Shown here piece after piece: positions 4,234 through 37,825 of a DNA stretch of 38,064 nt. A model generated the notes under the pieces. It saw only the letters and a program-made list of their open reading frames with translations. It was not told the origin of the DNA and searched no databases. Source of the DNA: a virus (taxonomy: Duplodnaviria; Caudoviricetes); IMG/VR virus record IMGVR_UViG_3300038829_000037, positions 1 through 38,064 of that record; one strand, written 5' to 3'. The stretch's first letter is position 1, and each line of letters starts with the position of its first letter. The translations under genes were made by a program, and so were the position numbers.

Positions 4234-4794
4234 ATGGACACGGAAACAACCGAAACAGGAGTTACTACTGAAACAGGTAACGGAGAAGGCGAGCAGGGTG
4301 CAGAGACAATCGCAGTTTCTAAAAAGGACTACGAAACTCTCAATCAGACACTCGGCTCTCTCAAGCGAGAACTCAAGGACTTGAAAAAGACCAAAGATAC
4401 CGCGACAGAAACTCCTACAAAAACCAAACCAGAGGAATTTGGTCTATTGCAAAAATCGTTCCTTCGTGCGGCTGGAATCTCCGATGCCGAAGAAGTAGAA
4501 CTTGCTCTTTTAACCGCTAAGAAATGGGGAGTAGAGATTGACCAAGTGGTTGATGATGAGGACTTTAAGGTAAAACTTGAACGTCATCGAACATCAAAAT
4601 CTAACGCTCTCGCAACATCTAATGTTCGCGGAAGTGCTGGCACCACGCAAGCTAAACTCACACCAGAGTATTGGATTTCAAAAGGTGCCCCGCCTACCAA
4701 GGCAGACATCCCAGATAGAAAAACCCGCGCCAAAATTGTGAGAACGATGATGGCGAAGGCAAGTACCGGAGGAAAGACATTCTACAACGATTAG
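4234..4794 (+). CDS. Capsid scaffolding protein (putative)
   Basis: Acidic T/E-rich N-terminus, coiled coil, immediately upstream of the coat gene. Confidence 0.65.
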   Translation: MDTETTETGVTTETGNGEGEQGAETIAVSKKDYETLNQTLGSLKRELKDLKKTKDTATETPTKTKPEEFGLLQKSFLRAAGISDAEEVELALLTAKKWGVEIDQVVDDEDFKVKLERHRTSKSNALATSNVRGSAGTTQAKLTPEYWISKGAPPTKADIPDRKTRAKIVRTMMAKASTGGKTFYND

Positions 4795-4805
4795 GCTCGA
4801 CAATA

Positions 4806-4906
4806 ACTGATCTTCTGTGATTAGCAGGTTCTAATCAATTTGATGTAAGTTCTTCGTTATCATTAACGAGTTCGTAAAATCAAGTTAAACTTATCACAGA
4901 CACAGT
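4806..4906 (+). ncRNA. Structured, probably pseudoknotted cis-RNA directly 5' of the coat reading frame
   Basis: ACTG4806/CAGT4903; TCTGTGAT4814/ATCACAGA4893; GATTAG4819/CTAATC4831; AATTTGAT4837/ATCAAGTT4879; TTCGTTA4853/TAACGAG4864; TAAGTT4846/AACTTA4888 crossing pair; mismatches resolve as G-U on the + strand. Confidence 0.7.
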
Positions 4907-5762
4907 AAACGTCATCACGTATGAAACAACATACGATGATGTACTTCAGGACAGACTAGATCATCCAACGACCTTTAAGGAGATGTGCAATATTACGATA
5001 ACCGACACGCGCGTTATCTCATCTTCTTACATGTCCACGACACCTTCGGTAACTACAGTTACCCGAGGCACTGGACATGACCTTACTCTCTACGAGGAAA
5101 CCGCAGAAACTCTGACGATTTCTACCGGACGAGATTTGGGTATCTTCATGGATTGGGGCGATATCGCACAGTCTCCGTGGTCAAAACCCGCAGAGCTGTT
5201 CGATAGAATTGGTGCTTTGCTGAATGAATACATTGAAGGAGCTGTCCTTGGGCAACATGCCGAGTGGACTGACTTTGACAATGCTTCTATCGGCGGCGCG
5301 GCTGGGAACATCACTGTTTCCGCTTCCAACATCGACGACATTATCCGTGGCGTGAAGCGGGAAATCCGCGAAGGCAACGGTGGGTCGAAGATGAACCAGT
5401 TCGGCGTAGGTTTCGTGTGGCGTGCGGCTGACTTTGAGTATCTGGAAGCATTCGTGCAAGCAAACGGCTTCACAACCGCTGACCAGGCTCTCAAAGAAGG
5501 CACAGTAGAAGGATTGCACTATCTTGGTGCAGACCACTATTGGTCAAACGAGCACACAGCAAACCACGTCTTCGCTGGCGTGAAGAAGACACAGCGACTC
5601 GGTATTCTCCGTGGAACGTATGGTCGTGCACACACGATTGACTTCCCAGCGAGTTCCGAGAACAACTTCCTATCGGGACAGGCATATTACTCGCGTGTAG
5701 ATATTGGTTTGCTCCATCCTACCGCGCATAATGCGCTCAGTTACGATGTGGCAGTTGCGTAG
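4902..5762 (+). CDS. Major capsid protein, P22-coat-like (start uncertain, probably non-canonical)
   Basis: Frame open from 4878 (after TAA 4875): ..TVNVITYETTYDDVLQDRLDHPTTFKEMC..; first ATG only at 4983; position after scaffold and sequence style fit coat proteins. Confidence 0.8.
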   Translation, partial: TVNVITYETTYDDVLQDRLDHPTTFKEMCNITITDTRVISSSYMSTTPSVTTVTRGTGHDLTLYEETAETLTISTGRDLGIFMDWGDIAQSPWSKPAELFDRIGALLNEYIEGAVLGQHAEWTDFDNASIGGAAGNITVSASNIDDIIRGVKREIREGNGGSKMNQFGVGFVWRAADFEYLEAFVQANGFTTADQALKEGTVEGLHYLGADHYWSNEHTANHVFAGVKKTQRLGILRGTYGRAHTIDFPASSENNFLSGQAYYSRVDIGLLHPTAHNALSYDVAVA

Positions 5763-33740: not shown

Positions 33741-34400
33741 ATGAAATACATCACAACCCTCATTGTCGGTCTGTTGATTCTTCCAAGTGTTTCGTTTGCT
33801 ACTCCTCTTACCCAAGATCAAGCAAATAGTCTTATAGCTGTAGTTCAATCATCTCCGACTACCCCAGCGAGTGCCTTTGTCCCTCTCATAACTAATTTCT
33901 CTAACATCACTGTCCCACAAGCGGAGAGTCTGATAAACGTCGTTCAGCAAGCCCCTGGCGTTCCGGCGAATGCTTTTGTTAATCTCCTCGTCTCATTCAC
34001 TCAGGAACCAGTGATAGCTTTAGGCGGCACAACAGTTACTACGACTCCAACAGAAACAGCACCGACGACTACCCTTGTGGATAACCAACCAGCACCGATA
34101 CAGCCTGTGGCACAATTACCACAAACATTGCCAATGAAAGAAATACGAATAATTAAGACACGCATGGGCGCGTCTTGGAATATAGAGATACACCCGATAG
34201 TCGATGGGAACCCTGTCGGCAAAGGGATGCAAACTACTCTCACAACTCAGAGTGGAACTATAAAACATTTGGCGAATCTGGGTGAGGAAGGTCTGACGAG
34301 CCGTGGAGGATACGCGGACTATCTTTTCACCCCAACAGATACAGAGACGATACTTACCGCGACAGCGAACGGAATCACGAAAGAAATAGTGCTGAGATAA
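33741..34400 (+). CDS. Secreted hypothetical protein
   Basis: Signal ..LPSVSFA; duplicated T..QA.SLI.VVQ..P..PA.AFV.L helices; Thr/Pro linker. Confidence 0.7.
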   Translation: MKYITTLIVGLLILPSVSFATPLTQDQANSLIAVVQSSPTTPASAFVPLITNFSNITVPQAESLINVVQQAPGVPANAFVNLLVSFTQEPVIALGGTTVTTTPTETAPTTTLVDNQPAPIQPVAQLPQTLPMKEIRIIKTRMGASWNIEIHPIVDGNPVGKGMQTTLTTQSGTIKHLANLGEEGLTSRGGYADYLFTPTDTETILTATANGITKEIVLR

Positions 34401-36308: not shown

Positions 36309-36444
36309 ATTGGGACTTAATACCTCGTAGAGAATGGCCGAACATGAATGAAATACGAACTATCTGTCCTCGTGCGGAGATGATTCAGACGTCTTTTGGC
36401 GCAGAGCTAAGGCTTAACAACGGAACAGGCATTATTTACTTCCT

Positions 36445-36858
36445 ATGAAAATCCTCATTGAGCAACCGCCTAATATCGAAGACATTAGAAAAGTGTTTAC
36501 TATAAACGACACCACCGTCTTCACATACAAAGACACCATCTACAATCCTCACAACTGCCCGATAGATATTCCTATCATGGCACATGAGGAAGTGCACAGT
36601 CGACAACAAGGTGAAGACCCTGAAGGTTGGTGGAAGAAGTATCTTGAAGATCCTGTATTCAGAATCGAGCAGGAAGCAGTAGCGTATTCTATGCAGTATT
36701 GGATGCAATGCCAATTCATCAAGAACAGAGACACCCGTGCACTTAACTTGCAAAGACTCGCAGAGACACTAGCAGGGGACATGTATGGTAAAATGATGAC
36801 GGTAGAAGAAGCTAAAAAATGGATTCTATGGAAGAAACCGAAAACAAAGAAGAAGTAA
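36445..36858 (+). CDS. HEXXH zinc-metallopeptidase-like protein
   Basis: AHEEVH..Q followed by E.EA.AY. Confidence 0.65.
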   Translation: MKILIEQPPNIEDIRKVFTINDTTVFTYKDTIYNPHNCPIDIPIMAHEEVHSRQQGEDPEGWWKKYLEDPVFRIEQEAVAYSMQYWMQCQFIKNRDTRALNLQRLAETLAGDMYGKMMTVEEAKKWILWKKPKTKKK

Positions 36859-36988
36859 ACCTGGTATTTGGAACAACACCAGCTCCGCGCGTGGGGAGTA
36901 TTATTATTCCACAGTGTTGCGTAGAAGGAAGAGATGATTGCAAGCATGTCTCTCAGAAAGAGAGGAAGGTGAAAACTAACATAGGCTT

Positions 36989-37240
36989 ATGAGGAAATAT
37001 CTGATCCCACATCCTACTGACAGAATGTTTCACTACGGGAGAGCTTTCATCGTTAGTAAATTGTACTCTACATTTGACGGGAGTTACGGGCAGATAATTT
37101 CAAAAAGAGAGGTATGTGATGATTGTGAAGGCGGTGAACATTTTGTTGTGCAGATAAATAGTGGGGAGAATAATAGGTGCATTACCTGTATCTCACCCAA
37201 AAACATGATGCTTTTATCGTTTCATGGCATGGCAATATGA
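36989..37240 (+). CDS. Cys-rich hypothetical protein
   Basis: CDDC..CITC; ATGA overlap. Confidence 0.5.
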   Translation: MRKYLIPHPTDRMFHYGRAFIVSKLYSTFDGSYGQIISKREVCDDCEGGEHFVVQINSGENNRCITCISPKNMMLLSFHGMAI

Positions 37241-37557
37241 AAGAACAAGAAGATAAACCCAAACTGGAGGATATCAAAAAGGCTGTCGCTACTCCGAAGC
37301 CCAACATTCTTACTGGACTACCAGCGTACCTAAAAGACCCTGGAGTATATAAAAAGATACAGAAAGCATCATACGAGATATTGGGAAGTATTTGCGGGCA
37401 TAGTGAAATGTCTGAATGGGCAATGTGCGTGAAATGTCAAAAGAAAGGTAAAGATCACGCAGACTATCTTCGCAAGCTGGGGTTTACCAGTCCTGCTCAA
37501 TACTACGCATGGAAACTTGTTCATGCGAAAATAGAACGAAGGGTGAAATTAAGATAG
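37237..37557 (+). CDS. Hypothetical protein
   Basis: C.H..CVKC, LGF.S.AQY..WK. Confidence 0.6.
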   Translation: MKEQEDKPKLEDIKKAVATPKPNILTGLPAYLKDPGVYKKIQKASYEILGSICGHSEMSEWAMCVKCQKKGKDHADYLRKLGFTSPAQYYAWKLVHAKIERRVKLR

Positions 37558-37558
37558 G

Positions 37559-37596
37559 TGTGGATAAACTGATTTGACAAAAAATTGTGGTATAAT
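37559..37596 (+). promoter_or_regulatory. Promoter with perfect DnaA box
   Basis: TGTGGATAA 37559-37567, TTGACA 37574-37579, TGgTATAAT 37588-37596. Confidence 0.65.
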
Positions 37597-37603
37597 TTCA
37601 AAA

Positions 37604-37825
37604 ATGAACACACATAACTGTATTAAATGCGGTGCACAGTATGAAGATTCCGAGGTAGATAATTATTATTGTGCAACGTGCCTAGTTGAAAAGAAAAGAA
37701 TCGCAGCTGAAGTGGACGCGAAATTAGCTGGTAGACCTCGGAAGCAAGTCGTTAGTCGTTTTTCCGCGAAGGACTTCAAAGGAAAGAATGGACGTATTTT
37801 CTTTAATGCCAACGATATTTTATGA
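37604..37825 (+). CDS. Zinc-finger small protein
   Basis: CIKCG..YCATC. Confidence 0.6.
   Translation: MNTHNCIKCGAQYEDSEVDNYYCATCLVEKKRIAAEVDAKLAGRPRKQVVSRFSAKDFKGKNGRIFFNANDIL

Follow-up and report, generated by a model that had tools for sequence, protein, structure and literature searches.

A phage capsid gene that very probably starts at ATC, behind a leader element that may descend from a homing endonuclease cassette

Background

Where does translation of a phage coat gene begin when its reading frame offers none of the usual start codons near the beginning of the protein? The question is raised by virus record IMGVR_UViG_3300038829_000037 (38 kb), which is present in two groundwater runs from one sample. 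The window analyzed here is the whole stretch of 38,064 nucleotides, and features lie on its plus strand unless marked otherwise. It carries, in order, a portal-like gene, small genes, a scaffold-like gene, the coat gene, an SU10-type adaptor gene and a terminase gene, an order that points to a tailed phage. The gene upstream of the coat (4237-4794) is likely the capsid scaffold, judging from its position; Pfam and PHROG gave no match for it. It ends TTC TAC AAC GAT TAG, that is, in the FYND/FYNS-stop motif of the family, and the same end precedes most related coats. Downstream, the coat frame is closed by TAA at 4875-4877 and then runs through 35 sense codons without ATG, GTG or TTG until ATG 4983. 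A first-pass annotation had already noticed this gap, which our reading of the frame confirmed, and had attributed it to structure-driven initiation at a non-AUG codon or to ribosomal bypass.

Related coats were found in 10 GTDB contigs, four of them titled Patescibacteria, Parcubacteria, Saccharibacteria or Peribacteria; of 401 genomes from the phylum presumed to include the host, 8 contain one as well. Since relatives of the coat occur in contigs and genomes of that phylum, the host of the phage is likely a member of the Patescibacteria, an assignment drawn from relatives for which misbinning is possible. Initiation factor IF3 is present in all five of the metagenome-assembled genomes (MAGs) that carry related coats (5/5). 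A distant coat relative lies deep in a large contig (L417, G208:C1, near 724 kb) of a genome that belongs to the same phylum as G001; it is possibly an integrated prophage and would then be useful for host assignment.

No tRNA genes were found in the window. At its left end (1-827), a NUMOD3/HNH endonuclease gene (150-827) stands immediately before the portal-like gene; the sequence upstream of it resembles a group I intron core by eye, and Rfam gave no match there. Past the terminase gene, three short conserved frames with homologues in related phages occupy 36436-37825, and are possibly one gene split by introns.

Results

The capsid gene and its first codon

By its predicted structure, the protein encoded at 4893-5762 is an HK97-fold major capsid protein of 289 amino acids. 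The model reached a pLDDT of 86.9 overall (33 in an earlier fold made from 23 close sequences), its best Foldseek matches were phage capsids (E 2.7e-13, and 5e-10 for HK97 1ohg), and its ESM Atlas neighbours include PF19821/PF25209 clusters. Sequence searches against PDB, Pfam, PHROGs and INPHARED returned no match.

The closest coats among the 120 homologues listed start MTDTVNVITY, which places the methionine position at ATC 4893-4895. The suspicion that the residues upstream of ATG 4983 form a genuine coat N-terminus was thus borne out, residues 1-30 being conserved in homologues rather than homology being confined to Met 4983 onward; the methionine equivalent itself moves from the ACA at 4902, where it had been placed, to ATC 4893. 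Among the eight members of the clade sharing T-D-T-V-N, the codon at this position is ATG, TTG, ATC or ATT in two members each (for instance ATG in L002 and L004, TTG in L020 and L024, ATC in L001, ATT in L010 and L018); codons after it vary synonymously, and those before it are unconserved. We conclude from these alignments that the capsid gene very probably starts at ATC 4893. The codon follows an A/U-rich spacer, AAACTT (4887-4892), which holds no Shine-Dalgarno (SD) sequence.

A sequencing error, a dead phage or a true start at ATG 4983 would each make this codon illusory. Gene callers do give a 259-amino-acid product, and read depth in the window is about 6. A second assembly (L021) agrees with the window leader letter for letter, and a Logan contig of run X1, the run to which confirmation by reads applies (runs X3, X5 and X6 do not cover the leader), spans 4754-5200 with no differing letter, so that no assembly error hiding an ATG was seen; both confirmations may share one sample. 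Residues 1-30 are conserved with synonymous variation, residues 21-30 of the model have a pLDDT of 86, and 17 other non-redundant phages show the same pattern, which leaves such an artefact extremely improbable. Because the two assemblies agree and independent phages behave alike, the missing canonical start is real. It is also peculiar to this gene: among 16 plus-strand frames of the window with homologues in other genomes, the coat is the only one without a canonical start, as it is in G006; the other flagged frames are antisense. Ribosomal-protein genes taken from 27 genomes of the phylum presumed to include the host start at ATG or GTG in 178 of 179 cases, the exception being a parsing slip.

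Unusual starts accompany long leaders

To survey the family, 168 leaders were gathered. Protein searches and N-terminal pattern searches supplied loci L001-L120, and a search with the coat motif only supplied the others. Loci from AAGTT-directed scans, one of which was mostly noise (2 coats in 120 loci), are excluded from the tally; 8 of 12 metagenome matches were not coats. Six intron-split or non-coat loci, three that were too short, L110, and loci with less than 130 nt upstream or no N-terminal match were left out before counting. Merging of 12 leaders at 85% identity led to 155 non-redundant leaders, window included; manual placement was used for the starts of L117, L278, L335 and L338, as well as for first exons where a gene is split by an intron.

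The coats start at ATG (119), TTG (9), GTG (9), ATC (8), ATT (8), ATA (1) and ACT (1). The tabulation of methionine-equivalent codons advocated at first pass therefore reveals 18 of 155 leaders, about one coat in nine among those sampled, with a start other than ATG, GTG or TTG, mostly ATC or ATT; 17 of these 18 codons are one base away from ATG. Median leader length is 44 nt before ATG and 87 nt before non-canonical starts. With long leaders defined as at least 58 nt, a cut chosen after looking, they precede 16 of 18 non-canonical starts, 10 of 18 GTG/TTG starts and 11 of 119 ATG starts (Fisher 6e-10). The link holds in each subset, including the coat-motif-only set (10/12 versus 11/66, p 1e-5), and all 17 disjoint pairs drawn from the tree agree with it. 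Among the 118 short leaders, just two have a non-canonical start (L330 and L336, both ATT). On a FastTree tree of 149 coats (six were too short), 15 changes account for 17 odd-start tips, against a mean of 16.4 with shuffled labels: odd starts are as scattered over the coat tree as shuffled labels. In 151 of the 155 leaders no 4-nt SD match was found, and ordinary leaders hold one hairpin.

Several single loci deserve mention. L117, a MAG contig, has ACT at the methionine position (region 2428-2500), the closing stop being followed by no in-frame ATG, GTG, TTG or ATH codon; among its relatives (L336, L278, L383), the sister has ATT and a cousin ATG. This ACT may reflect a mistake within an (ACT)n repeat; otherwise it is a methionine-independent start. 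The leader of L330 (1415-1455) measures 41 nt and precedes ATT; its ordinary hairpin is enclosed by a stem and a GACG/TATAA loop, and the motif may be an independent invention. The first 12 nt past the scaffold stop recur as GGTCGG(A/C/T)AATAG in L001, L002, L004, L018, L085 and L087. Finally, among the infC genes of Patescibacteria-labelled MAGs (L265-L268), L266 and L267 seem by eye to lack a canonical start close to where the N-terminus should lie, as in autoregulation by IF3.

The survey bears directly on the proposed bypass, a hop from the last scaffold codon, GAT 4789, to the coat codon GAC 4899 that would yield a fusion protein. The GAT is followed by a stop, an in-frame Asp codon stands at +2 in the window, L001, L010 and L018, and in T4 gene 60 a bypass rides on an HNH cassette (bioRxiv 2022.08.31.505936). 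The stop after GAT, however, is what stands at any gene end, and a matched codon near the coat start occurs in 7 of 18 non-canonical cases over a background of 22 in 119 ATG leaders, being absent in 11 of 18. Four of the seven belong to the T-D-T-V-N clade, whose ATG and TTG members carry the same Asp. The gaps to be crossed range from 41 to 692 nt, may hold a whole gene and take all three values modulo 3, and a hop leaves unexplained why the methionine codon is one step from ATG. We therefore regard bypass as very improbable.

Folding of the window leader

Several helices are predicted in the window leader. The outer one joins 4806-4809 to 4903-4906 (4 bp, pair probabilities 0.93-1.0). The region 4814-4837 corresponds to the ordinary leader hairpin of the family, and within it TCTGTGAT (4814-4821) is predicted to pair with 4893-4900. 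This helix, the strongest predicted (0.9-1.0) and absent from the first-pass list of stems, buries ATC, and its anti-start strand reads GAT, matched to that codon. Locally, GATTAG 4819-4824 could instead pair with CTAATC 4831-4836; the listed 4819/4836 hairpin is thus complementary, but it excludes the 4814-4821/4893-4900 helix and is absent from minimum free energy folds, whereas the other listed helices, 4806/4906, 4837/4886 and 4853/4870, were recovered. Pairing that covers the start is stronger than in shuffled sequences for the window, for 4 of 18 non-canonical leaders and for 19 of 114 ATG leaders, and is therefore optional in the family, which suggests that the predicted start-burying helix may be an optional coupling to the upstream gene. 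In many ATG leaders (such as L315, L342, L280 and L270), GCCAT occurs soon after the upstream stop and complements the ATGGC of the coat start, likely also a coupling helix.

Between this hairpin region and the start lies an extra element (4837-4886). It comprises stem P2 (4837-4844/4879-4886, the 4837/4886 helix; pair probabilities 0.61-1.0), stem P3 (4853-4859/4864-4870, the 4853/4870 helix; 0.3-1.0) and an internal loop (4845-4852/4871-4878), 8x8 in the window, that contains TAAGTTC and CGTAA. Fold stability z-scores were -1.33 for 4780-4990, -2.47 for 4795-4910 and -3.66 for 4837-4886, the bounds of the last two having been chosen after looking.

A structured RNA recurs in long leaders

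Long leaders of the family add to the ordinary hairpin a stem P2, a purine-rich loop (5' RAARY, 3' YAUAA), a variable stem P3 and then a spacer, an element of about 50 nt, most often separated from the start by about 10 nt. Of 20 anchored cases, 17 have the UAA at a distance of 15-19 nt from the start, a figure to be read with the descriptor, which was scanned 11-20 nt upstream only and fixed the AA columns; six of the cases were anchored by hand. Across 11 aligned elements, 83% of the cells are paired, against 30-44% in slid registers, and 9 of 10 pairs change on both sides. These stems do covary, and loop bases and spacing are kept while the stems turn over. RNAalifold gave no structure on the first MAFFT alignment, because the stems were out of register.

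The descriptor, made after seeing the data, matches 14 of 34 long leaders where shuffles predict 1.4, and none of 108 short ATG leaders; the window element passes it with a score reached by none of 1000 shuffles. A covariance model, R1, was built from 11 relatives, excluding the window. Searched at E<=10, it did not find the window element, whose membership consequently rests on the post-hoc descriptor, on its position and on its 5' arm, AAGTTCTT, which it shares with the cassette arms described below. Across 93 loci R1 found only the L010 element (E 1.1) and missed those of L001, L018, L067, L271 and L365. The best R1 match in the window, at 33820-33864 on the minus strand, was non-significant (E 8.4; arms GTAGTC/TATAAGACTAT). 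Rfam gave no window match at gathering level or at E<=1, and none at E<=5 for the element at 14 loci; an L20 leader or another Rfam cis-element was thus considered and set aside for want of a match to a curated model. The element may resemble the L20 leader and the UAA/GAN site of 23S H40.

The idea of structure-linked non-AUG initiation fared well in one part: a non-AUG start is indeed tied to RNA structure upstream. The pseudoknot invoked for it fared less well. TAAGTT and AACTTA in the window are complementary, but the crossing helix is unconserved and AACTT has a nested partner, AGGTT 4826-4830 (0.6-0.7); full pairing of AAGTT with the linker before the start occurs in 3 of 20 elements, against 12 of 108 short ATG leaders by chance.

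These observations also weigh on a methionine-independent, IRES-like entry, in which the RNA would place the ribosome and an elongator tRNA (Ile for ATC/ATT) would read the first codon. ATC and ATT form the codon set of tRNA-Ile(GAU). They account for eight starts each, and ATA for only one, though G-to-A is an easy mutation, and the ACT of L117, with no near-cognate codon in frame, would agree with such entry. The L117 case, however, comes from one MAG contig and lies within an (ACT)n repeat, a single base change separates 17 of the 18 odd codons from ATG, and the same element also precedes TTG, GTG and ATG. The element has no conserved pseudoknot and measures about 50 nt, whereas intergenic region (IGR) IRESs have three pseudoknots and a length of about 150-190 nt. 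In E. coli, S1 and an SD-like element were found to account for the activity of an IGR IRES (PMC9458429). We consider this mode of entry improbable.

RNA splicing or editing that restores AUG was weighed as well. Group I introns are common in the 5' ends of these coats (RF00028 in L067), and joining ATG 4843 to ACA 4896 would yield MTDTVN. That ATG-TAA at 4843 exists in the window only, however, and the leaders of L018, L117, L276 and L330 have no ATG, GTG or TTG at all; 50 nt is too small for an intron core, and Rfam found none in the window while detecting the real intron of L067, so that splicing is highly unlikely. Inversion of DNA between the outer inverted repeats was discarded, since by inspection it does not restore an ATG.

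HNH cassettes occupy the same position

In relatives the element can hold an endonuclease gene. HNH genes lie inside it in L080, L408 and L411 (Pfam), and in the P3 loop in L080, L271, L280 and L282. The cassette flanks pair into a duplex of 35-40 bp that also covers the HNH start; the arm duplexes (-38 to -45 kcal/mol) lie beyond all 200 shuffles in four of four cases. A scan of IMG/VR with a cassette arm found eight records, all of them before a coat and all with a non-ATG start (ATT 5, GTG 2, ATC 1), five of the eight being one lineage; their ORFs are intact in six (192-225 codons), broken in one (119) and cut to 10 codons in one. The loop of relatives thus holds an HNH gene that is intact, broken, reduced to 10 codons or fully deleted, and L323, L285 and L294 are read, from their sequences, as further probable cassette deletions.

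Filled and empty alleles occur in close relatives (L315 versus L323 and L285). L315 (ATG) and L323 (ATC) are about 99% identical, all flanking bins matching at 26-30 of 30 nt; where L315 has 9 nt including ATG, L323 has 78 nt ending in ATC. In L090, an HNH gene without such arms accompanies an ATG start, and the GTG cassettes L080, L280 and L282 have no UAA loop strand. No HNH-bearing allele was found in the T-D-T-V-N clade of the window, whose element holds no HNH ORF. Taken together, we think it probable that the window element at 4837-4886 is the remnant of a mobile HNH homing cassette.

Group I introns, many with HNH genes, occur at several sites in the first coat codons (L012, L056, L067, L072, L074, L076, L084, L090, L095, L108, L110 and L114); that of L067, confirmed by Rfam RF00028, accompanies an ATT start.

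AAGTTC lies about where the -35 box of an HNH promoter would be, and its conservation could thus be explained at the DNA level. The conserved letters might then be promoter boxes left by the cassette (AAGTTC near -35, TATAAT at -10), with a late transcript of short leader using ATC. TATAAT-like hexamers do occur 12-18 nt before several starts, and cassette arms have TGCTATAAT before the HNH ATG. The distance from AAGTTC to the hexamer, however, can be as short as about 10 nt or exceed 100 nt, and compensatory stems lie in between; the last T of the hexamer is often G, A or C, and a promoter scan found no site in 4795-4893. Promoter boxes are, on balance, quite improbable.

Discussion

The reading that we favor, if only by a little more than an even balance, combines a start at ATC 4893 with help to initiation from an RNA that descends from a cassette; for the window it is a proposal read from sequence. 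An HNH cassette would have replaced the ancestral ATG region of the coat gene. Its endonuclease presumably cuts near the conserved coat start, so that loss of the ATG, the presence of the insert, or both, would protect the carrier. In late mRNA the paired cassette arms would keep the HNH gene looped out; that gene would then decay, leaving the stem-loop-stem and spacer. The A-rich internal loop would likely dock on the 30S subunit or on S1, taking the place of the missing SD at a set distance (15-19 nt from the loop UAA to the start codon), and ATC 4893 would be read by initiator tRNA. Decoding by that tRNA is suggested by the 17 of 18 odd starts that are one base from ATG and by GTG and TTG starts behind the same element. 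The helix over ATC (4814-4821/4893-4900) would have to melt, for example by the action of ribosomes finishing the upstream gene.

Whether the predicted RNA helps actively is, to us, evenly poised. A passive remnant is the main rival: the fold would only loop out the endonuclease, and the weak codon would be tolerated through translational coupling to the upstream gene or an abundant late mRNA, or would act as an infC-like brake that eases as IF3 activity falls. Once leader length is taken into account, the motif brings no significant further signal (13 of 26 long leaders with non-ATG starts versus 2 of 11 with ATG, p 0.14), elements also precede ATG in three cases (L314, L357 and L388), and the start-covering helix is found in ATG leaders too; infC itself starts at AUU or AUC, is regulated by IF3 and is still well expressed (PMC5499595). 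Passivity would sit poorly with the anti-start GAT matching ATC in the window, with the loop bases and spacing kept despite stem turnover, and with the persistence of non-canonical starts in many endonuclease-free lineages but hardly ever in short leaders. Odd starts have been kept in many lineages after the nuclease was gone, almost never without the extra RNA, which makes help from that RNA the likeliest reading; a passive remnant we rate as unlikely.

The nearest parallel is the MobA element of T4 gene 60, an HNH homing endonuclease with a 50-nt bypass cassette (bioRxiv 10.1101/2022.08.31.505936). There as here, an HNH cassette has entered an essential phage gene more than once at a single site, a device at the RNA level offsets the damage, and the RNA part stays when the endonuclease decays or is lost. 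Unlike gene 60, the present insertion replaces a start region instead of splitting a coding region, and its device would act at initiation, matched take-off and landing codons not being conserved. The T4 seg/mob endonucleases (PMC2988022) are likewise intergenic HNH genes with their own promoter; their cleavage sites lie hundreds of bases away, and replacement of a start codon is not described in the portion of that source consulted.

As for the start codon, infC (PMC5499595) resembles the coat in having an AUU/AUC start in a well-expressed gene of bacterial type. IF3 treats such starts as non-canonical, and in one phage example output from them was about 5%; infC is nevertheless well expressed from AUU (same source). 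The coat differs in being a phage capsid gene with a mobile structured leader, no SD and repeated gain and loss. In the split ribosome-binding sites of T4 genes 25 and 38 (PMC3014915), leader hairpins also improve late-gene initiation, but they bring an SD close to AUG, and the coat leader has neither. The dicistrovirus IGR IRES (PMC9458429, PMC10275262, PMC12221177) is similarly an intergenic RNA before an AUG-less capsid ORF; the coat element has no conserved pseudoknot, is one third the size and is followed by a first codon nearly always near-cognate to AUG. Its core (5' RAAR / 3' YAUAA) resembles the GAN:UAA and GA:NAA internal loops (PMC3035441), which act as A-minor donors and thereby offer, as a proposal, a route for docking of the element loop; unlike those loops, that of the element appears to be 5x5, and the window has an 8x8 version.

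Conclusions

In the open literature and Rfam we found no report of the coat-leader element; its component parts are of known kinds and their combination appears new. More tentatively, and with doubt prevailing, the element can be pictured as a portable 50-nt RNA, by which a selfish element would destroy the AUG of its host's most abundant protein, evade its own nuclease and recruit ribosomes by shape at AUC or AUU. Were this so, bacteria would have a natural ribosome entry site that is driven by structure, and the element would represent a new route to harmlessness for homing elements beside introns, inteins and bypassing; in its extreme form (ACT in L117) it would be a start without methionine. 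The one cross-domain claim of structure-driven initiation in bacteria was explained by S1 together with an SD-like sequence (PMC9458429). The family provides a ready allelic series: alleles are empty with ATG or filled with ATC, ATT, TTG or GTG, the endonuclease is intact in some and decayed in others, and one pair is 99% identical. Such a series makes natural structure-driven initiation in bacteria testable with simple reporters. For annotation, the 18 of 155 sampled coats without a canonical start are ones that gene callers would truncate. For biology, the finding bears on how starts are chosen in SD-less phage mRNAs, likely those of Patescibacteria.
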